Under the pieces are notes generated by a model that worked only from the letters and a program-made list of their open reading frames with translations, was not told the DNA's origin and ran no database searches. A program made the position numbers and the translations under genes. DNA of 64,000 nt from Escherichia coli (GTDB lineage Bacteria; Pseudomonadota; Gammaproteobacteria; Enterobacterales; Enterobacteriaceae): NCBI RefSeq assembly GCF_030013205.1, contig NZ_CP122648.1; one strand, written 5' to 3'. This document shows positions 2,846 through 44,485 of this stretch, piece by piece (within the stretch, counting starts at the first letter, position 1; every line of letters begins with the position of its first letter).

Positions 2846-4739
<1,894 letters not shown>

Positions 4740-8739: not shown

Positions 8740-9705
8740 TCATTCTCCCCGCTGCTTATCATGCTGATAATTCACCCAGGCGTTGATAATAAACGTCATC
8801 ACCAGAATGCCAAACACCACGCCCAGCGAGACGGCGATTGGAATATGGTAGAAGTCGACAATCAGCATCTTGATACCGATAAACACCAGAATTACCGCCA
8901 GGCCATATTTGAGCATCGAGAAACGTTCTGCTACGCCCGCCAGCAGGAAATACATCGCACGCAGGCCGAGGATTGCAAACAGGTTTGAGGTCAGCACAAT
9001 AAACGGGTCAGTGGTCACGGCGAAGATAGCCGGAATGCTATCCACGGCGAAAATCACGTCGCTCAATTCCACCAGAATCAGCACCAGCATCAGCGGCGTG
9101 GCATACAGCAAGCCATTCTTACGCACAAAGAAATGCTCGTTGTCGATGGTGTCGGTCATGCGCAAATGACCGCGCAGCCAGCGCATCAGCGGCTTGTCGC
9201 CAATGCCTGATTCATCTTCATGGGCCAGCGCCATCTTCACGCCGGTAAACAGCAGGAAGGCACCGAAGATATACAGGATCCAGTCGAACTGCGAAATCAG
9301 CCAACTGCCAGTGAAGATCATGATGGTACGCAGAACAATCGCTCCGAGTACGCCATACACCAGCACGCGCCGTTGTAACGCCGCCGGAACAGAGAAATAG
9401 CTGAACAACATCAGCCAGACAAAGACGTTATCGACCGCCAGCGATTTCTCAATCAGATAACCCGTGAGAAAGGCCAGTGCCTGTGGATCGGCAACGGCGC
9501 GACCTTCGGTTTGCACCAGATACCACCAGAAAGCGGCGTTAAACAGTAACGACAGCGTCACCCAGACCAGCGACCAGGCCGCAGCCTGTTTCATGGTCAT
9601 GGCATGTGCCCCACGACGCCCCTGCAACAACAGGTCGATAGCCAGCATAATGGCGACAACAACAGCGAATCCGCCCCATAGCAACGGCGTGCCGACAGTA
9701 TTCAT
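8740..9705 (-). CDS. alx: TerC-family inner membrane protein Alx
   Basis: 321-aa multi-[34 protein letters not shown]... Confidence 0.9.
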
Positions 9706-33264: not shown

Positions 33265-33317
33265 CTGATATATAAAAAGAAAAAGGCTGACGATTTCTCG
33301 TCAGCCTTTGCTATGTC

Positions 33318-33362
33318 TGGTGGCCCCTGCTGGACTTGAACCAGCGACCAAGCGATTATGAG
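33318..33362 (-). repeat. 45-bp direct repeat of the tRNA ileX 3' end (island att core, yqjH-proximal side)
   Basis: TGGTGGCCCCTGCTGGACTTGAACCAGCGACCAAGCGATTATGAG is identical to 44410..44454 (3' part of ileX); diverges from the tRNA thereafter. Confidence 0.85.
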
Positions 33363-33471
33363 TTGGTTGATAACCCTTTACTTACAGATAATTAGCGATA
33401 CTTTTCAATACCTTAGTATTTTTTAAAACTACTGTATAAATACCTGTATATACCCCAAAATACTTCTTTAC

Positions 33472-33543: not shown

Positions 33544-34971
33544 GTGAAATTATTCAGATTCTCTAAAGTAAAAATTGCAGAACTGCCAACGCCGGAACAT
33601 GGACAGGTCGAATATGGTGATACGGAGGTTAACGGGCTGCGTGTCCGTGTAGGTTCGTCTGGTGTGAAAAGTTTCTGCATTTCCCGTAAGCGTAACGGAA
33701 AATTTATTCGTGCAACGCTGGGGCGTTTTCCTGATCTGAGCGTGGATAATGCCAGGGCTAAAGCTATGGAACTCCTTGGCGAAGTCGCCACAACGGGGAT
33801 AAATCCGAACATAGCAAAGCGCACTAACAACAAGGCCATGATAACGCTGAGTAAGGCGATTGACGCCTACGTAAAAAATCGTGGCCACCGCCTGAAACCC
33901 GCCACAGAAAAACAGTACCGCAGCATATTACAGAATTATTCCGGTGACTGGATGGCCCATACCCTCGCCAGTATTTCCCGCGAACGGGTGGAACAACGGC
34001 ATAAGGCCATCACTGATGGGGCTGTATGGTTCGGTGCTGATAAAACCACGTTACGGGCTGGGGTTGGTACAGGAAGCAAGGCACAGGCCGATTTATGGGC
34101 GCGTGCGCTACGTGCTGTGTGTCGGTTTGCGCATGATCATTACCGTGATGATGCGGGTAATACTCTTTTACCGGATCCGCCGACTCTGGTACTGAGCACC
34201 AAGCGCCAGTGGCACGGAACGGTAAGAAAAACGGAACGTATCCGCCTGCATGATTTTCCCCGCTGGTTTGCTGCTGTAGCTGCTGTGCGCGACCAGGGCG
34301 AACAGGAAAGGGATGATATAGCGGTGACGGTATGCGATGCCGTGGAAATGGCGCTTTTTACCGGACTGAGGAAATCAGAAATTTTTGGCCTTACGTGGGA
34401 TCGCGTGAATATGGGCGGTCGTTTTTTCTGGATAGACACCACGAAAAACGGGGATCCGCTCGAATTACCGATTACTGATACGTTGCGGGAAATGTTCCAC
34501 CGCCGACTGAAAATAAAAAACGCTGATGATGTTCTGGTGTTTCCTGGTGTGAAGGGAGTGATTCAGGAAACACGGCACATCATAGACCGGATAAGCGCGG
34601 CTACTGTTCCAGAGTCGAACGATGAAATGCTCTCCCCTGTACCATTCAAATGGCACGATGCACGCCGGACGTTCGGAACGGTTGCCGAACTGGTGGGCGT
34701 GGGCAATTACATCCTCAAGCGCCTGATGAATCACCGTACTATGCGAAGTGCTGACGTAACGCAGGGGTATTTACATTTTGGTGCTGATGAACTGCTGGAG
34801 CCAGCGTCACGGATAGAACGGGCAATTCTGGAACATGCCGGGCTGGTGGAGAGTAAAAAATCTATCGATGCGCAATTGCTTTCCGCACTGGAGAGTATGA
34901 GTGACAGTGAGAAACGCGCATTACTATTTAGTATCGTTAATTCAAATGGTGGTTTGAATGTCAGAAAATAA
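33544..34971 (+). CDS. Tyrosine recombinase / P4-type integrase
   Basis: 475-aa ORF (GTG start at 33544); N-terminal arm-binding-like segment (GLRVRVGSSGVKSFCISRKRNGKFIRATLGRFPDLSVDNARAKAMELL) and C-terminal catalytic region with H-x-x-R and Tyr (WHDARRTFGT...TQGYLHF). Confidence 0.85.
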   Translation: MKLFRFSKVKIAELPTPEHGQVEYGDTEVNGLRVRVGSSGVKSFCISRKRNGKFIRATLGRFPDLSVDNARAKAMELLGEVATTGINPNIAKRTNNKAMITLSKAIDAYVKNRGHRLKPATEKQYRSILQNYSGDWMAHTLASISRERVEQRHKAITDGAVWFGADKTTLRAGVGTGSKAQADLWARALRAVCRFAHDHYRDDAGNTLLPDPPTLVLSTKRQWHGTVRKTERIRLHDFPRWFAAVAAVRDQGEQERDDIAVTVCDAVEMALFTGLRKSEIFGLTWDRVNMGGRFFWIDTTKNGDPLELPITDTLREMFHRRLKIKNADDVLVFPGVKGVIQETRHIIDRISAATVPESNDEMLSPVPFKWHDARRTFGTVAELVGVGNYILKRLMNHRTMRSADVTQGYLHFGADELLEPASRIERAILEHAGLVESKKSIDAQLLSALESMSDSEKRALLFSIVNSNGGLNVRK

Positions 34972-35776: not shown

Positions 35777-35974
35777 GTGATACTCATGCATTTAGAAAAG
35801 ATGACCCGCAAAGAAGCTGCCGAGCATTTGGGGGTAAGTGTCCAGACTCTTGCTAACTGGGCGTGTACTGGCAAGGTAAAAATCCCTTTTCATAAGCTGG
35901 GGCGCAAAGTGCTGTATATGCGCACTGATCTCGATGCTTATCTTGCATCCACTCGCAGAACGCAGACGGTGTAA
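35777..35974 (+). CDS. Excisionase/AlpA-type helix-turn-helix DNA-binding protein
   Basis: MTRKEAAEHLGVSVQTLANWACTGKVKIPFHKLGRKVLYMRTDLDAYLAS fits the excisionase-family HTH pattern; three candidate starts (GTG 35777, ATG 35786, ATG 35801). Confidence 0.7.
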   Translation: MILMHLEKMTRKEAAEHLGVSVQTLANWACTGKVKIPFHKLGRKVLYMRTDLDAYLASTRRTQTV

Positions 35975-36966: not shown

Positions 36967-37266
36967 ATGAGAACATATTTATCTGGCTTGACTGCCAGCG
37001 GTTATGCACACCCCAAAATTATCCCCGGCGCTATTTATCTGGATAAGAACGGTAACAGAGTAACGGTAAAAGAACTGATGTTTGACCGTGTGTATTTTAT
37101 TCGTGATGGCTATTCATTTCATAGTTCGCTGAACGTGGAGATCTTTATTAGCAGATTCAGGCGGGAAATCCCGCTTTCCAGAAATAACCATGTGTCATGT
37201 ATGGATGTTGATAAAAAACTACAGGAACTGAAAAACATGATTGCCGCGTGGAGAGAGCAGAAATGA
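36967..37266 (+). CDS. Hypothetical protein (99 aa)
   Basis: ORF immediately after previous gene; stop overlaps primase start. Confidence 0.5.
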   Translation: MRTYLSGLTASGYAHPKIIPGAIYLDKNGNRVTVKELMFDRVYFIRDGYSFHSSLNVEIFISRFRREIPLSRNNHVSCMDVDKKLQELKNMIAAWREQK

Positions 37267-39080
37267 AAAAAGCGCCAAATTTAAAACACCAGCCGCGTGA
37301 CAAAATGACGGAAGTCATCATTTTTGCGGGTAGTGATGCGTGGGCACATGCGAAACAGTGGCAGGAACAGGACGGGCGACTGGCTGGCGATAACGTGCCA
37401 CCTGTCTGGCTTGGAGAGCAACAACTTGCCGAACTGGACAACCTGCAAATCGTACCGGACGGACGCTATCGCGTGCGTCTCTATCAGGCGGGGTTATTGC
37501 GTCCGGGGCTTGTTAATACCATCGGGCAGAAACTGGCAGTGGCAGGTGTCAGGGATGCTGATTATTACCCTGAAGGAATGCACAGCCAGAAACGGGAGAA
37601 CTGGCGCGAATATCTGGAACGTGAACGGGCAGAGCAGGCGGAAAAGAAAAAGGTAGTTGAACTGCCTGTAAAGAAAAAAGAGCGGGTAAAAGACGATAAC
37701 GCTTCATCACTGGCGCTTAACCAGATGGGAGCAAGTCAACGCGGCGAAGTTCTCCTGGCACATTATGGCGGTGAACTGGCGATTCATGCTGACTCTGACA
37801 CTGTTCACCATTACAACGGCGTTGTATGGGAGCCAGTACAGGATAAAGAATTACAGCGAGCTATGGCACAGATTTTCATTGATGCGGAGATCAGCTATTC
37901 GCAGAACGCCATTAAATCGGCGGTCGATACCATGAAGTTAAGTTTGCCTGTAATGGGGAATACAGCCCGTAACCTGATTGGATTCAGTAACGGGGTATTT
38001 GATACCAGAACAGGTAATTTTCGGGAGCATAACAAAAACGACTGGTTGTTAATTGCCAGTGAATTACCTTTCAGCCCACCAGCAGAGGGGGAAACGCTGG
38101 CAACACATGCGCCGAATTTCTGGAAGTGGTTACGCCGTTCGGTGGCTGAGAATGACCGCAAGGCGGATCGCGTACTGGCTGCATTATTCATGGTGCTGGC
38201 GAACCGGTACGACTGGCAGTTATTCATTGAGGTAACAGGTCCAGGGGGAAGTGGTAAAAGCGTGATGGCGGAGATTTGCACCATGCTGGCGGGTAAGGCC
38301 AACACAGTATCGGCAAGCATGAAGGCGCTGGAAGATGCAAGGGAACGCGCGTTAGTGGTTGGCTTTTCGCTGATTATCATGCCGGATATGACCCGCTACG
38401 CTGGTGATGGGGCAGGAATTAAGGCCATTACAGGCGGTGACAAGGTGGCAATTGACCCGAAACACAAAGCCCCCTACTCAACGCGTATTCCGGCAGTAGT
38501 GCTGGCGGTTAACAATAACGCCATGTCATTCAGTGACCGCAGCGGGGGGATCTCACGTCGTCGGGTGATATTCAATTTTTCGGAAGTTGTACCGGAGAAC
38601 GAACGCGATCCAATGCTGGCGGAAAAAATAGAAGGTGAGCTGGCGGTAGTGATTCGCCATCTGCTTACACGGTTTGCTGACCAGGACGAAGCCAGACGCC
38701 TGTTATATGAGCAGCAGAAATCTGAAGAAGCACTGGCGATAAAGCGAGAGGGGGATTCGCTGGTGGACTTCTGCGGCTATCTCATGGCGTCGGTAATGTG
38801 TGATGGCCTGTTAGTGGGTAATGCTGAAATTGTGCCATTCAGCCCACGCAGGTATCTCTATCATGCCTATCTGGCTTATATGAGGGCACATGGGTTTGGT
38901 AAACCTGTAACACTGACGCGCTTCGGTAAAGATATGCCGGGGGCAATGGCGGAATATGGCAGGGAGTATATGAAACGGAAAACGAAGCACGGTTTGCGTT
39001 CAAACGTGACACTGACGGAGGAATCAGAAGACTGGATGCCATCATGTGTATCGGTCACTAATGACGATAGCAAAAATTAA
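37263..39080 (+). CDS. Primase/helicase-type replication protein (P4 alpha-like; D5-type NTPase)
   Basis: ORF 37248..39080; likely ATG at 37263 (MKKAPNLKHQ...); Walker A GPGGSGKS with downstream hydrophobic-D Walker B-like LIIMPD; immediately followed by TGTTCACC iteron array. Confidence 0.8.
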   Translation: MKKAPNLKHQPRDKMTEVIIFAGSDAWAHAKQWQEQDGRLAGDNVPPVWLGEQQLAELDNLQIVPDGRYRVRLYQAGLLRPGLVNTIGQKLAVAGVRDADYYPEGMHSQKRENWREYLERERAEQAEKKKVVELPVKKKERVKDDNASSLALNQMGASQRGEVLLAHYGGELAIHADSDTVHHYNGVVWEPVQDKELQRAMAQIFIDAEISYSQNAIKSAVDTMKLSLPVMGNTARNLIGFSNGVFDTRTGNFREHNKNDWLLIASELPFSPPAEGETLATHAPNFWKWLRRSVAENDRKADRVLAALFMVLANRYDWQLFIEVTGPGGSGKSVMAEICTMLAGKANTVSASMKALEDARERALVVGFSLIIMPDMTRYAGDGAGIKAITGGDKVAIDPKHKAPYSTRIPAVVLAVNNNAMSFSDRSGGISRRRVIFNFSEVVPENERDPMLAEKIEGELAVVIRHLLTRFADQDEARRLLYEQQKSEEALAIKREGDSLVDFCGYLMASVMCDGLLVGNAEIVPFSPRRYLYHAYLAYMRAHGFGKPVTLTRFGKDMPGAMAEYGREYMKRKTKHGLRSNVTLTEESEDWMPSCVSVTNDDSKN

Positions 39081-39093
39081 ACTTATGGAATAA

Positions 39094-39316
39094 CTGTTCA
39101 CCACTGTTCACCCTGTCATAAATATCTTTTGTATCAGTATGTTATAGGGTGAGCAGTTATTTATGAACTGTTCACCAAACTATTCACTGTTCACCTTTTT
39201 GATTGTTTATTGAGCTTCAAGGGTGAACAGTGGTGAACAGTTGGTGAATAGTTTTTGTGAAACTGTTCACCCCTTAACATTATGAATTAAAAGATAAAAT
39301 ATCAAAAGGTGAACAG
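39094..39316. repeat. Iteron array, 9-mer CTGTTCACC in both orientations (candidate satellite replication origin)
   Basis: Forward CTGTTCACC at 39094, 39104, 39168, 39187, 39263; reverse GGTGAACAG at 39222, 39232, 39308; one-mismatch variants at 39148 and 39243; TGTTCACC is the iteron bound by P4 alpha protein at ori/crr. Confidence 0.7.
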
Positions 39317-39367
39317 GTGAAGGGTTAAAACGCAAAAATTTTAATTTACTGCTGTGAGATAAAGCCT

Positions 39368-39613
39368 ATGACAGCGAAGCACACAAAAAAATCACAATCG
39401 CACGCCCTTGATTTGACGGAACACTGGTTAAGGGTGTCGATAAAAATCATCGACCGCAACGCCGGGGAAGGATATGCGAAAGCACATCCCGAACTGATTA
39501 GCTCATTCATGACAACGGCAGCTGCAAACTTTGCCACGCTGACAGAACGGGAGATTGCCGAAGCGGAACAGGTGACAACCATCAACGTTAAAACCGGAGA
39601 GCAGACAGCATGA
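39368..39613 (+). CDS. Hypothetical protein (81 aa)
   Basis: ORF downstream of iterons, stop overlaps next gene start. Confidence 0.45.
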   Translation: MTAKHTKKSQSHALDLTEHWLRVSIKIIDRNAGEGYAKAHPELISSFMTTAAANFATLTEREIAEAEQVTTINVKTGEQTA

Positions 39614-40032
39614 CAGCACAGATAGCGGCTTACGGGCGGCTGGTGGCTGACCCGCAGTTAAAGACCACCAGCAAGGGTACACAAATGACGATGGCGAGTA
39701 TGGCGGTCCCACTTCCGTGCAGCCAGGCAGATGACGGAACGGCGACGATGTGGTTATCCGTCCTGGCGTTTGGCAGACAGGCCGAAGCACTGGCAAAGCA
39801 CCGCAAGGGTGAACTCCTGAGCGTGGCGGGTAACATGCAGGTGAGCCAGTGGACCGGACAGAACGGGGAGACGCGGCAGGGCTGGCAGGTTATCGCAGAC
39901 AGCGTAATCAGTGCGAGAACGGCGCGACCGGGCGGCAAAAAAGGCCAACAGGGGCAGGCTACTGATGCACTGAGCAGAGCAAAACAACAGGCGGGAAATG
40001 ATGATCCGTACGGGGATAACATACCGTTTTAA
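39610..40032 (+). CDS. Single-stranded DNA-binding protein-like (OB fold) with Gly/Gln-rich tail
   Basis: 140-aa ORF; layout (N-terminal OB-fold-like segment, then GGKKGQQGQ..., acidic DDPYGDNIPF C-terminus) resembles SSB; similarity judged by eye. Confidence 0.55.
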   Translation: MTAQIAAYGRLVADPQLKTTSKGTQMTMASMAVPLPCSQADDGTATMWLSVLAFGRQAEALAKHRKGELLSVAGNMQVSQWTGQNGETRQGWQVIADSVISARTARPGGKKGQQGQATDALSRAKQQAGNDDPYGDNIPF

Positions 40033-40455: not shown

Positions 40456-40665
40456 GTGAATTGTATTAACGACCTGAACACAGGCGAGGTAAAAGGTGGT
40501 TCCGTTCATCTGGATGCGCAGACCGTTATGCGCCTTAAGCAGTACAGGATCGACCACATAAATCATCATCCTGACCAACCATTACCAGGTGCGGCGCAGA
40601 TTGTCAGACACGCGGTTAACGCGTGGCTTGATAAGAATGGTTTTGCATCTGGGGGGGAGCAATGA
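40456..40665 (+). CDS. Hypothetical small protein (69 aa), translationally coupled to protease-capsid gene
   Basis: GTG start preceded by AAGAGGAAG RBS; stop overlaps start of the 637-aa ORF. Confidence 0.45.
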   Translation: MNCINDLNTGEVKGGSVHLDAQTVMRLKQYRIDHINHHPDQPLPGAAQIVRHAVNAWLDKNGFASGGEQ

Positions 40666-42575
40666 ATCACTGGTACACCATTAAGGCGCTGGGTGTTCGC
40701 GGAGCGGCAGAAATATCCATCTATGAAGAAATTGGCGGCTTCGGTATTACCGCGAAGCAGTTTGCGGAAGACCTGAAAGCCCTGGGCGATGTCTCACATA
40801 TCGACCTGCGGATCCATTCGCCAGGTGGTGACGTGTTTGAAGGCATCGCCATCTATAACCTGTTACGGAATCATCCGGCAGAAATTACGGTTTATATCGA
40901 TGGTGTTGCGGCTTCAATGGCTTCGGTTGTCGCAATGGCTGGCGATCGTGTTGTGATGCCGGAAAACGCCATGATGATGATACATAAGCCGTGGGGTATC
41001 TCTGGCGGAAATGCTGGTGATATGCGTGATTATGCTGATTTGCTGGATAAGGTGGAAACCGTGTTAGTCCCTGCTTATGCCAGAAAAACGGGCAAATCAG
41101 CACAGGAAATTACCGCCATGCTGGAAGATGAAACCTGGATGGACGGGAAAGAATGCCTTAAGCACGGTTTTGCTGATGAATTGTTGCCATCTGTCACAGC
41201 AATGGCGCGAATTGAATCGAAACGCACAGGAGATTTTTCACACATGCCTGAAACCATTAAAGGAATGATTACCCCGCCACAGGGAGCAGCCAATATTGCT
41301 GGTAATGAACAGAAGCGCATCAACGGAATAAGTGAAGTGTTTAGCCTGTTCGGCAGTCGTTACGACGGGATCAAAATGGCGTGCCTGGAGGATGCATCAT
41401 GTACACCGGAGATGGCCCGTGAAAAGTTGTTGAACGAGCTGGGGCGCGAGTCCACGCCATCCAATAAAAATATCCCGACTCATATTTATGCCGGTAACGG
41501 GAACATAACAGGCGATGCAATTCGTCAGGGGCTTTATTCTCGTCTTGGGTATGAACGCCCAGAGCGGGGAAATCCTTACGCGATGATGAGCCTTTTTGAA
41601 ATGGCCCAGGCATCACTAACTGATCGTGGTATCAGTGTTGGCAGTTTTTTAAATCGCTCGCAGGTCGTTAATGCAGCTTTCACACACAGCAGCAGCGATT
41701 TTTCTCATATTCTGGCTGGTGGTGCTGAAAAATCAGTGCTGAAAGGCTGGCAGGACAGCGGCGAAACGTTCCAGAAATGGACGCGTACCGGATCGCTTTC
41801 AAACTTTCATGAAGCAAAGCGCGTTGGTCTGAATGGTTTTTCAAAGCTGGATAAAGTACCGGAAGGTGCGGAATATAAATACATCACCACCAGCGATAAA
41901 GGTGTACCTATTGCGCTGGCCACATACGGTAATATTTTTTCTGTTACCCGTCAGGCCATTATCAACGATGACCTGACCCAGTTAACTACAATCCCCATGG
42001 CGATGGGGCGTGCGGCCGCCAGAACAGTAGGTAATCTGGTTTATCTTCTGTTAACCAGCAACGGCAAATTTACGGATGGTAAAGCGTTATTCCATGCCGA
42101 TCATAAAAATCTTATTGCGAAGGATATGGACATGGTGGGGCTTGATGAAGCCCGTAAGCTGATGCGCCTCCAGGAGGATGCTAACGGCGACTCACTGAAT
42201 ATTACCCCTGCTTTTGTTCTGGTCCCTGCCGCGCTGGAATCTGCCGCGCGTCGCGCCATTCTGTCATCGTCATCAGTCTTTCCGGTTGGTGATGAGAGCA
42301 CTATCAATCAGAACCCCGGCATCATTAACGTGGTGAAAGATATGGCAGAAGTAATTGTTGAGCCACGTCTTGATAAGGCCAATAGCAAGGAATGGTATGT
42401 AGCCGCAGCTAAGGGGATGGACACAATAGAAGTCGCTTATCTTGATGGTATGGATACGCCATATCTTGAGGAGCAGGTGGGCTTTACTGTTGATGGTGTC
42501 GCCTGGAAAGTGCGCATAGATGCAGGTGTCGCGGCCCTCGATTATCGCGGATTACTGAAATCGAGTGGAGCATGA
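40662..42575 (+). CDS. Prohead protease (ClpP/S49-like) fused to a capsid-like C-terminal domain
   Basis: 637-aa ORF; N-terminal IHSPGGDVFEGIAIYN and GVAASMASVVAMAGD resemble the ClpP/S49 serine-protease motifs (cf. lambda gpC DTPGG); C-terminal ~350 aa has no recognised enzyme motif and is interpreted as major capsid by context and composition. Confidence 0.7.
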   Translation: MNHWYTIKALGVRGAAEISIYEEIGGFGITAKQFAEDLKALGDVSHIDLRIHSPGGDVFEGIAIYNLLRNHPAEITVYIDGVAASMASVVAMAGDRVVMPENAMMMIHKPWGISGGNAGDMRDYADLLDKVETVLVPAYARKTGKSAQEITAMLEDETWMDGKECLKHGFADELLPSVTAMARIESKRTGDFSHMPETIKGMITPPQGAANIAGNEQKRINGISEVFSLFGSRYDGIKMACLEDASCTPEMAREKLLNELGRESTPSNKNIPTHIYAGNGNITGDAIRQGLYSRLGYERPERGNPYAMMSLFEMAQASLTDRGISVGSFLNRSQVVNAAFTHSSSDFSHILAGGAEKSVLKGWQDSGETFQKWTRTGSLSNFHEAKRVGLNGFSKLDKVPEGAEYKYITTSDKGVPIALATYGNIFSVTRQAIINDDLTQLTTIPMAMGRAAARTVGNLVYLLLTSNGKFTDGKALFHADHKNLIAKDMDMVGLDEARKLMRLQEDANGDSLNITPAFVLVPAALESAARRAILSSSSVFPVGDESTINQNPGIINVVKDMAEVIVEPRLDKANSKEWYVAAAKGMDTIEVAYLDGMDTPYLEEQVGFTVDGVAWKVRIDAGVAALDYRGLLKSSGA

Positions 42576-42581
42576 CAACAA

Positions 42582-42605
42582 GGGCGGCGACAGCCGCCTT
42601 TTTTA
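42582..42605 (+). terminator. Rho-independent terminator after protease-capsid gene
   Basis: GGCGGCGACAGCCGCC hairpin followed by TTTTTT. Confidence 0.6.
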
Positions 42606-42606
42606 C

Positions 42607-42678
42607 GGGTCCTCCCGGTGGAGTGGTCTGCCACGGGGCGGGAGCGGCGCGGAAAAAGGCTAGTTTTTGCATTTTCAT
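42607..42678. repeat. 72-bp conserved element, copy B
   Basis: GGGTCCTCCCGGTGGAGTGGTCTGCCACGGGGCGGGAGCGGCGCGGAAAAAGGCTAGTTTTTGCATTTTCAT; same terminator-then-element arrangement as copy A. Confidence 0.7.
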
Positions 42679-42831
42679 TCGTCGTCATCATCTTTATATG
42701 ATATTGAATTTTAAGTATTTTTATTTTTGGTATGTTAATTTTGCTTGTTTTATGCTCAACATATAGCGCATTTTTTGACCTCTTCTGAAAGTTGTTCGCA
42801 GGATGCATGTTTAAAACATTCTGGAGCGGGT

Positions 42832-43317
42832 ATGGATCGAGAACTGAAAAATCTGATGCTGAACATTAATCAACTGGCGGCGATAGCGGGAATATGTCGT
42901 CAGACTGCGGCGGCAAGGCTGAAAAACATCCAGCCAGCCGGAGGGCATGACAAGCTGAAACTCTATCGGGTGACTGACATTCTGACCTGTTTTCTTGATC
43001 TTCCCGTTCCGGCATCACTGGAAGAAATGGAGCCACATGACCGTAAGGCCTGGTATCAGTCCGAACGTGAACGCCTCAAGTTCGAACAGGAAACGGCGCA
43101 ACTCATACCCGCCGATGATGTGCGAAAAGAGATGGCTATATGGGGGGAAATCGTAAGCGAGGAACTGGCAAAACTCCCCAATATTCTGGCACGTGATGCC
43201 GGGCTTAAACCGATGGCAGTAAACAGAGTGCAGTCAATTATTGACGATTTGTGTAATCAGATTATCAGCCGGATGGTAAAAAATGACGTAGTGAATGAGG
43301 TCGCAAAACAGGCATGA
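42832..43317 (+). CDS. Terminase small subunit, lambda Nu1-like
   Basis: ORF 42745..43317; likely ATG at 42832 with GGAG RBS; MDRELKNLMLNINQLAAIAGICRQTAAARLKNIQPAGGHDKLKLYRVTDILTCF parallels the Nu1 N-terminal wHTH region (KKQLADIFGASIRTIQNWQEQGMPV...EVLYDSAAVIKWY); comparison from memory. Confidence 0.65.
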   Translation: MDRELKNLMLNINQLAAIAGICRQTAAARLKNIQPAGGHDKLKLYRVTDILTCFLDLPVPASLEEMEPHDRKAWYQSERERLKFEQETAQLIPADDVRKEMAIWGEIVSEELAKLPNILARDAGLKPMAVNRVQSIIDDLCNQIISRMVKNDVVNEVAKQA

Positions 43318-44195: not shown

Positions 44196-44346
44196 TGATA
44201 CCTCCGTCAGGGTTTTTGCCGGTCTCTTGGAGAGTTGGGGGCAAAAGTTCAGACCCGTAGCACTTTCTTGTTCGCAGGTGAACGGCTGCTACGACCCAAC
44301 TGTTCTGTAGGCATGAGCCAATTCTTACTTGTTAATACTTCTCAGA

Positions 44347-44367: not shown

Positions 44368-44409
44368 TAAAGCAAGATAGTTTGGATACATCTGTAATTC
44401 ATTGAAATC

Positions 44410-44485
44410 TGGTGGCCCCTGCTGGACTTGAACCAGCGACCAAGCGATTATGAGTCGCCTGCTCTAACCACTGAGCTAAGGGGCC
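44410..44485 (-). tRNA. ileX: tRNA-Ile (anticodon CAU, lysidine-modified isoleucine tRNA)
   Basis: Reverse complement reads GGCCCCTTAGCTCAGTGGTTAGAGCAGGCGACTCATAATCGCTTGGTCGCTGGTTCAAGTCCAGCAGGGGCCACCA: 76 nt, CAT anticodon in loop, encoded CCA end; canonical position next to mug. Confidence 0.9.

Follow-up and report, generated by a model that had tools for sequence, protein, structure and literature searches.

Background

The replication origins of phage-inducible chromosomal islands (PICIs) have been described as AT-rich DNA bordered on both sides by a set of iterons and located immediately 3′ of the pri-rep gene, with a layout unique to PICIs and a relation between Pri-Rep and the alpha protein of the satellite P4 that was qualified as 'distant' (Fillol-Salom et al. 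2018, ISME J, PMC6092414). For one of these islands, EcCICFT073, a pri-ori plasmid was kept at the restrictive temperature while its delta-ori and delta-pri versions were not, and the cos sites were mapped as elements of their own (PMC6092414). Here, we analyzed an iteron array in a stretch of 64,000 nucleotides of Escherichia coli (contig NZ_CP122648.1, assembly GCF_030013205.1; this whole 64-kb stretch is called the window below), which lies just past the initiator gene of an 11.09-kb PICI integrated at a tRNA gene and which, judging from sequence comparison, very probably serves as the vegetative replication origin of this island. The kind of origin (that of a PICI) and the repeat (the P4 type I iteron) are both already known, and a sister origin, that of EcCICFT073, is experimentally tested.

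Among the closest described systems outside the enterobacterial PICIs are the Staphylococcus aureus pathogenicity islands (SaPIs), whose Pri and Rep are not known to be related in sequence and are often separate proteins. In the origins of SaPIs and other Gram-positive PICIs, an AT-rich stretch is likewise bordered by iteron sets and adjoins the 3′ end of rep (PMC6092414). For the replicases found in the various satellite families, it was suggested that they may be analogous and not homologous (de Sousa et al. 2023).

As for P4, its alpha protein binds the type I iterons of both ori and crr. In the reference used here (GenBank NC_001609, with annotated repeats), the 'ori type 1 repeats' are TGTTCACC or one-mismatch variants of it, and they lie both in ori (9310-9413) and in crr (4291-4590), the 'cis required region for replication', which closely follows the stop codon of alpha (4636). 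The first-pass annotation of the window had named the octamer of our array as the repeat of P4 ori and crr, and this record bears it out.

Organization of the iteron array

The iteron of the window is a 9-mer, CTGTTCACC/GGTGAACAG, with the octamer core TGTTCACC. Ten exact copies of this octamer were found in the window against 1.78 +/- 1.38 expected (dinucleotide-preserving shuffles, n=100, maximum 5), 8 of which fall inside 39095-39315, and a chance cluster is thereby excluded. Exact 9-mers are located at 39094, 39104, 39168, 39187 and 39263 on the + strand and at 39222, 39232 and 39308 on the - strand, together with two one-mismatch 9-mers at 39148 (-, GGTGAGCAG) and 39243 (-, GGTGAATAG). 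Reading of the sequence and alignment with relatives added two degenerate sites that are good iterons in these relatives, at 39180-39188 (+, CTATTCACT) and 39316-39324 (-, GGTGAAGGG). The array therefore totals 12 sites in both orientations (8 exact and 4 degenerate), and the earlier count of ten copies or near-copies within ~220 bp, which rightly caught the cluster (8 exact and 2 one-mismatch), was a slight underestimate. Its placement immediately downstream of the 'primase' gene was accurate, the first iteron lying 13 bp past the initiator stop codon (39078-39080). The elements of the array are as follows:

39094..39324, no strand assigned: whole iteron array, proposed ori, 12 sites forming an imperfect 230-bp palindrome
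39094..39195, - strand: module A, six iterons (i1-i6), whose reverse complement is colinear with P4 ori1
39094-39102 (+), 39104-39112 (+) and 39148-39156 (-, 1 mismatch): iterons i1-i3 of module A
39113..39147, no strand assigned: 35-bp AT-rich spacer in module A, GC 0.26, candidate melting site
39168-39176 (+), 39180-39188 (+, degenerate) and 39187-39195 (+): iterons i4-i6 of module A
39196..39221, no strand assigned: central AT-rich spacer, GC 0.27, symmetry center and loop of the predicted hairpin
39222..39324, + strand: module B, six iterons (i7-i12), colinear with P4 ori1
39222-39230 (-), 39232-39240 (-) and 39243-39251 (-, 1 mismatch): iterons i7-i9 of module B
39263-39271 (+), 39308-39316 (-) and 39316-39324 (-, degenerate in the window and intact in relatives): iterons i10-i12 of module B
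39272..39307, no strand assigned: 36-bp AT-rich spacer in module B, GC 0.17, candidate melting site

Read along the + strand, the site order is ++-+++ / ---+--, that is, two inverted six-site modules around a 26-bp AT-rich center. The spacers of the array display a GC content of 0.09-0.28 against ~0.5 in the flanking genes, and the 25-mers with the lowest stability in the region, which are in the top 0.1% of the island, lie in the spacer at 39272-39307. As single-stranded DNA, 39085-39330 (246 nt) is predicted to fold into one long imperfect hairpin (dG -52.8 vs -22.95 +/- 3.16 for shuffles, z = -9.45), although this only restates the palindromic layout. Consensus scans detected neither a promoter-like site in 38900-39500 nor a terminator in or near the array.

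Comparison with P4 and with PICI origins

Like the published PICI origins, the array lies 3′ of pri-rep and displays two iteron sets flanking AT-rich DNA; its designation by the first-pass annotation as a strong candidate origin of the island is consolidated by this match in position and anatomy (PMC6092414). The nearest counterpart with experimental data is EcCICFT073, which we located in the CFT073 genome and in which the genes follow the same order as in the window island (int, alpA, YlcI, Icd-like, DUF4222, pri-rep). Its origin (L008 9010-9237), contained in the 290 bp past the pri-rep stop, displays the same ++-+++ / ---+-- layout with the iteron TGTCTACC, which stands two octamer bases apart from the TGTTCACC of the window, and is followed by a small open reading frame (ORF) and an SSB gene, as in the window. 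The two initiators are 48% identical (~75% in the N-terminal module, as estimated from the alignment), and the two islands differ in cargo, with PerC, a capsid protein and a decoration protein in EcCICFT073 and a protease-capsid fusion plus terS in the window.

In the comparison with P4 ori/crr spacing that the first-pass annotation had proposed, each module is colinear with ori1 while the whole is one compact origin and not a bipartite ori + crr. Indeed, the octamer of P4 is identical to the window iteron, and the six sites of ori1 have the order, orientation and spacing found in each window module: iteron offsets are 0, 10, 21, 41, 86 and 94 in module B and 0, 7, 19, 39, 83 and 93 in module A (reverse strand), vs 0, 10, 21, 43, 86 and 96 in P4 ori1. 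The alignment between module B and ori1 extends into the non-iteron flank TTCACCCyTTAAC and into the AT-rich spacer, for which the P4 equivalent of 39272-39307 is 9361-9395. The reverse complement of module A aligns in the same way. The 120-bp crr units share only a part of the module layout, and both halves of the array align better and more fully with ori1; as regards location, the array, like crr, lies just past the stop of an alpha-type gene. By its layout, the proposed origin can thus be described as a P4-ori1-type module duplicated in inverted orientation and located where P4 has crr.

Several differences accompany these likenesses. P4 combines one ori1 module with two direct 120-bp crr units ~4.7 kb off, whereas the window has two abutting inverted modules without a distant partner, no second, crr-like iteron cluster being found in the 11-kb island. 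A terminator separates alpha from crr in P4 and none was detected at the corresponding place in the window.

Initiator protein

The gene upstream of the array contains the following parts:

37263..39080, + strand: initiator gene, annotated in RefSeq as 'DNA primase family protein' (Pri-Rep of PICIs), 605 aa
37263..37682, + strand: N-terminal module, aa 1-140, without Pfam match
37746..38561, + strand: D5_N and helicase core of superfamily 3 (SF3; DUF5906), from Pfam and alignment with alpha
38751..39041, + strand: C-terminal winged-helix origin-binding domain (Pfam Pox_D5), proposed reader of the iterons, compared with PDB 1KA8

The Pfam domains D5_N, DUF5906 (the SF3 P-loop core) and Pox_D5 follow one another in the same order as in P4 alpha, residues 145-595 of the initiator being 51% identical to residues 320-771 of alpha. 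Both proteins have in common the Walker A (GPGGSGKS) and Walker B motifs, the sensor and an SRRR arginine-finger motif (the double arginine of alpha is treated in PMC2777425), and the last 100 residues of the initiator match the origin-binding winged-helix structure of alpha (PDB 1KA8, E=1.8e-24). The attribution of this protein to the P4 alpha family, made by the first-pass annotation, therefore holds for the helicase and origin-binding parts and fails for the primase part. Indeed, alpha also carries Zn_Ribbon_Prim (30-66) and Toprim_3 (210-299), whereas the window initiator has neither, since the Zn ribbon and the Toprim with its EGYATA motif (the DnaG-type primase part) were not found in it, and 'primase' is here a name and not a demonstrated activity.

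The N-terminal module (aa 1-140) had no Pfam match, and its profile compared with alpha 1-323 gave an hhalign probability of 3.8%. Its predicted fold weakly resembles the Toprim region of DnaG-type primases. By eye, its first strand is followed by AGSDA, compared with EGxxD in Toprim primases, and no DxD occurs past the third strand, so that the module appears to be without the acidic Toprim motifs. It was also considered as a primase homologue of alpha and rejected as such on the Pfam and hhalign results, which leave a weak fold-level likeness. Note that this module is a compact, confidently modelled domain found in 92 clusters among 1.8 billion proteins.

Conservation, distribution and modularity

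The array was found in 685 of 5426 complete E. coli genomes. A median of 2 places per genome, considered as co-resident arrays, was set aside as more likely due to the palindrome matching on both strands. A 12-site array after a homologous gene also occurs in classical PICIs with PerC, ProQ and Q-type cargo and in capsid-forming PICIs (cfPICIs), including vB_KppS-Ant (16.5 kb, sequenced from induced particles). When six arrays of 71-100% identity were compared (96 iteron and 150 spacer columns), mean pairwise column identity reached 0.88 in the iterons vs 0.65 in the spacers (Mann-Whitney p=5e-10), with 73/96 vs 59/150 invariant columns, respectively, and the pattern in these alignments is one of purifying selection on the iterons while the spacers drift but remain AT-rich.

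Scanning one genome per species with the 19-mer CTGTTCACCACTGTTCACC returned 18 loci, two from metagenome bins and 16 assigned to nine genera, all Enterobacteriaceae (Klebsiella, Enterobacter, Citrobacter, Cedecea, Superficieibacter, Tenebrionibacter, Buttiauxella, Phytobacter and Raoultella). A bipartite arrangement, with an ori1 module and a second cluster 4.1-4.9 kb off, is seen in at least five of them (L013, L016, L019, L020 and L023), and in one bipartite locus the intervening DNA codes for a protein with 84% identity to alpha over its full length. Therefore, P4-like elements keep ori and crr apart, and PICIs have two modules fused.

The N-module follows a distribution of its own. Its DNA is present in 1855 of the 5426 E. 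coli genomes, under the annotations 'DNA primase family', DUF927, 'helicase RepA family' or DUF5906, and Foldseek returned it fused to DUF927, VapE and NrS-1-like helicases. It thus stands on at least four helicase types (alpha-type, DUF927, RepA-family and VapE/NrS-1-like) and, on this distribution, is exchanged as a unit between different helicases. As an example, the initiator of B1172 (L029) is 95% identical to that of the window over residues 1-140 and unrelated beyond, where it continues as a DUF927 helicase. The iteron type of this DUF927 allele is TAACCCGCA, with sites flanking AT-rich DNA, and the B1172 origin (L029 5648-5772) consists of two copies of TGCGGGTTA, a 43-bp AT-rich spacer and four copies of the inverted ATAACCCGCA, followed by SSB. 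In the Serratia phage Scapp (43 kb), the gene for an alpha-like primase-helicase of 839 aa precedes an array of GAAAAGTGCAA/TTGCACTTTTC iterons lying in both orientations (L010 3035-3330), which extends to a full phage the rule of an iteron origin just after an alpha-type gene.

Since the iterons of EcCICFT073, B1172 and Scapp differ together with the cassette, the iteron tracks the helicase/binding-domain cassette and not the N-module. This covariation, the strongest comparative argument of our study, points to the C-terminal part of the protein as the reader of the array. Identity to the winged-helix domain of the window is 75-94% in the TGTTCACC-type PICIs, 47% in P4 alpha and 33% in EcCICFT073. 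The pair formed by EcCICFT073 and the window is a natural specificity swap, in which an iteron change is paired with a diverged winged-helix domain.

One locus combines the octamer with another type of initiator. The stretch L018 1721-2110, from an AT-rich contig of a metagenome-assembled genome labelled 'uncultured Clostridia bacterium' (CAMHPW010000004.1), carries 13 exact TGTTCACC copies after a gene for a VapE-like helicase in which no similarity to the alpha winged-helix domain was detectable. Its first six sites have the P4 ori1 layout (---+, AT-rich spacer, --), followed by an AT tract of ~80 bp and then by five direct copies, of which the last four are spaced by 22 bp.

Probable origin function and alternative explanations

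Taken together, the enrichment and position of the sites, the two-module palindrome, the colinearity with ori1, the homology of the initiator, the conservation of the iterons, their covariation with the cassette, the AT-rich spacers of low stability, the lack of any other iteron cluster in the island and the precedent of EcCICFT073 make it very likely that the array acts as the origin of the island. Under this reading, a helper phage would trigger AlpA-dependent transcription and the island would excise, after which the winged-helix domains of the initiator would bind the iterons, the tandem sites 10-11 bp apart being placed on one face of the helix. Each six-site module would load one hexamer, so that two oppositely oriented hexamers would form, as happens at palindromic origins used by other SF3 helicases. 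An AT-rich spacer would then melt (39272-39307 being the least stable), and bidirectional theta replication could proceed with the SSB encoded by the island and the Pol III of the host. The separated ori and crr of P4 are probably replaced here by the two adjacent modules. As the Zn-ribbon and Toprim primase domains of alpha are absent, priming would probably be provided by the host DnaG or by an unrecognized activity of the N-module.

Comparable arrangements exist for SV40 large T, papillomavirus E1 and poxvirus D5/E5, SF3 helicases that carry an origin-binding domain of their own and act on inverted sites around AT-rich DNA, as here, and head-to-head double hexamers of a D5-type primase-helicase are announced in the title of PMC12137749. 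However, the binding domains and sites of these systems are unrelated to those of the window, and the likeness is one of mechanistic analogy alone.

A number of observations weigh against the array being the origin. Four of its 12 sites (i3, i5, i9 and i12) are degenerate in the window. The array is probably transcribed through, since no terminator or promoter was detected around it. The functional precedent is limited to EcCICFT073, whose protein is 48% identical and reads a different iteron, and since P4 needs two separated cis sites, the sufficiency of one compact array is inferred from EcCICFT073 and not from P4. Moreover, the initiator has no recognizable primase domain that would account for the priming step, and the stoichiometry of one hexamer per six iterons is purely inferential.

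Among the alternatives, the array could be a crr-like auxiliary enhancer that binds the initiator while replication starts at another site of the island, which we consider unlikely. It does occupy the position of P4 crr just downstream of an alpha-type gene, the crr units share part of the module layout, and a weak iteron-like pair exists inside the initiator gene (37770(-)/37801(+)). However, each half of the array aligns better and more completely with ori1 than with crr, the island contains no second cluster, the intragenic pair is found only in very close relatives, and for EcCICFT073 the pri-rep gene with its 3′ region sufficed on a plasmid (PMC6092414). In addition, true P4-like elements with the same 19-mer stay bipartite (4.1-4.9 kb) and PICIs do not.

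Iteron-binding initiators often autoregulate, and the array might mainly serve transcriptional control, either through autoregulation of the initiator or by blocking or allowing read-through into the SSB and packaging genes; its location between co-oriented genes without a terminator would allow a bound protein to act as a roadblock. This appears quite improbable, as 38900-39500 contains no promoter-like site, the array lies downstream and not upstream of the initiator gene, and the layout is that of a characterized origin; a regulatory side-effect on read-through may exist but would not replace origin function. Finally, it is highly improbable that the array is a relic, a chance cluster or a packaging or recombination site (cos/pac or cruciform) without a replication role, even though the region is a long imperfect palindrome and the island's own small terminase needs a recognition site somewhere, because the shuffles exclude chance, the iterons are selectively conserved among arrays 71-100% identical and present in 685/5426 genomes, the repeat fits the specificity of the binding domain next to it and changes together with this domain, and the cos sites of EcCICFT073 were mapped as separate elements (PMC6092414).

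Implications for satellite replication

Taken alone, the location of the origin of one more E. coli PICI, of a type already described, has little weight and would be a footnote rather than a discovery. What the comparison adds is a link between PICI origins and the classical ori of P4, which share the octamer as well as the six-site module and whose binding domains are homologous. In the literature searched, the two satellite families are treated as independently evolved and the PICI layout as unique; no statement that PICI origins consist of P4 ori1 modules was found in this open literature, and a full-text search of it for the octamer returned primer lists only. The homology of the window Pri-Rep to alpha is nevertheless plain on alignment, and since each half of the array is a P4 ori1 module, the published view of a layout found in no other replicon may need revising.

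It is conceivable, albeit rather doubtful, that the iteron origin belongs with the helicase and the winged-helix domain to a single exchangeable cassette, which has passed between P4-like satellites and PICIs/cfPICIs and in PICIs was joined to a common 140-aa N-module, which replaced the primase of alpha. If so, P4 alpha and the PICI initiator may recognize each other's origins, and co-resident satellites of the two families could cross-fire, titrate each other or be incompatible. The 'Pri' half of the enterobacterial Pri-Rep would then perhaps be no primase but a Toprim-like adaptor (e.g., recruiting the host primase or a replisome part). Replication cross-talk or incompatibility between satellite families, and the identity of what primes PICI replication, are the questions raised by these comparisons, and the three natural specificity swaps (TGTTCACC, TGTCTACC and TAACCCGCA) could serve for mapping the recognition of the iteron by the winged-helix domain.

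Sites outside the array

The first-pass annotation had also pointed to an iteron-like GGTGAACGG near 44277. This sequence exists, but it is a lone one-mismatch site without meaning for the origin. Indeed, one-mismatch variants of CTGTTCACC outside the array number 26 in the window against 12.4 expected from dinucleotide shuffles, an approximately twofold excess, and in view of this background no weight can be given to a lone copy. The codons CTG-TTC-ACC (Leu-Phe-Thr) are preferred in E. coli and are the likely cause of this excess. The 44277 site was therefore discarded as part of the origin system, such sites being common in E. coli coding DNA.

The intragenic pair 37770/37801 was likewise tried as an analogue of P4 'ori2' and rejected for its retention in very close relatives only; neither Ant nor L007 has it, and it is also missing, in the form of TGTCTACC, in EcCICFT073. 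No repeats were found after the primase gene of Pasteurella Pmp7 in its linear record.

Host island

The island extends over 11.09 kb between the copies of a perfect 48-bp direct repeat at a tRNA gene, and its main features besides the initiator and the array are listed below:

33316..33363, no strand assigned: left att repeat, 48 bp, 3′ part of the tRNA
33544-34971, + strand: integrase, followed by a hypothetical protein
35786-35974, + strand: AlpA-type helix-turn-helix (HTH) regulator
36967-37266: DUF4222 gene, adjoining the initiator
39368-39613, + strand: conserved 81-aa protein (phrog_1231), directly past ori in all relatives
39610-40032, + strand: SSB, after the 81-aa protein in all relatives
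40662-42575, + strand: prohead protease/major capsid fusion, 637 aa, ClpP-like (NF045540, 903.9 bits)
42832-43317, + strand: small terminase subunit (DUF1441; phrog_141, 6.7e-57)
44408..44455, no strand assigned: right att repeat, inside the intact tRNA gene
44410-44485, - strand: intact tRNA gene, anticodon CAT, annotated tRNA-Ile, adjoining mug-rpoD

The left part reads integrase, hypothetical protein, AlpA-type HTH, YlcI/YnfO ORF, Icd-like, hypothetical protein, DUF4222 and initiator, and past the array follow the 81-aa protein, SSB, the ClpP-like prohead protease/major capsid fusion, terS (DUF1441) and a hypothetical protein, all on the + strand except the small YlcI/YnfO ORF (60 aa). The integrase adjoins the tRNA fragment and not the intact tRNA, and the tRNA was the only known RNA family found in the island. 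The window is chromosomal and, over the part compared, shows 100% identity to E. coli strain ETEC4079.

The island has the organization of a PICI, namely int, alpA, pri-rep, ori, hijacking genes, a small size, its own att and rightward transcription. The gene set of P4-like satellites, according to de Sousa and Rocha, comprises int, alpA, alpha, epsilon/ash, sid, delta and psu. P4 itself carries sid, psu, delta and epsilon, whereas none of these had a match by NCBIfam or PHROGs among the annotated proteins and longer ORFs of the island (the 60-aa YlcI/YnfO ORF being screened against PHROGs only), and on these grounds of gene content the island is an enterobacterial PICI and not a P4-like satellite. 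From its annotations, the stretch 40662..43317 is the hijacking module. As the island has the protease-capsid fusion and terS without any portal, connector or large terminase gene, it appears intermediate between classical and capsid-forming PICIs.

Two further observations concern the immediate neighbors of the initiator and of the array. The DUF4222 gene overlaps the initiator start codon by 4 bp (ATGA, 37263-37266), a pairing present in nearly all relatives, which suggests that the two genes are translationally coupled. In related islands, the gene of the 81-aa protein (39368-39613) always stands between the origin and the SSB gene, and this protein could possibly be an accessory replication factor.

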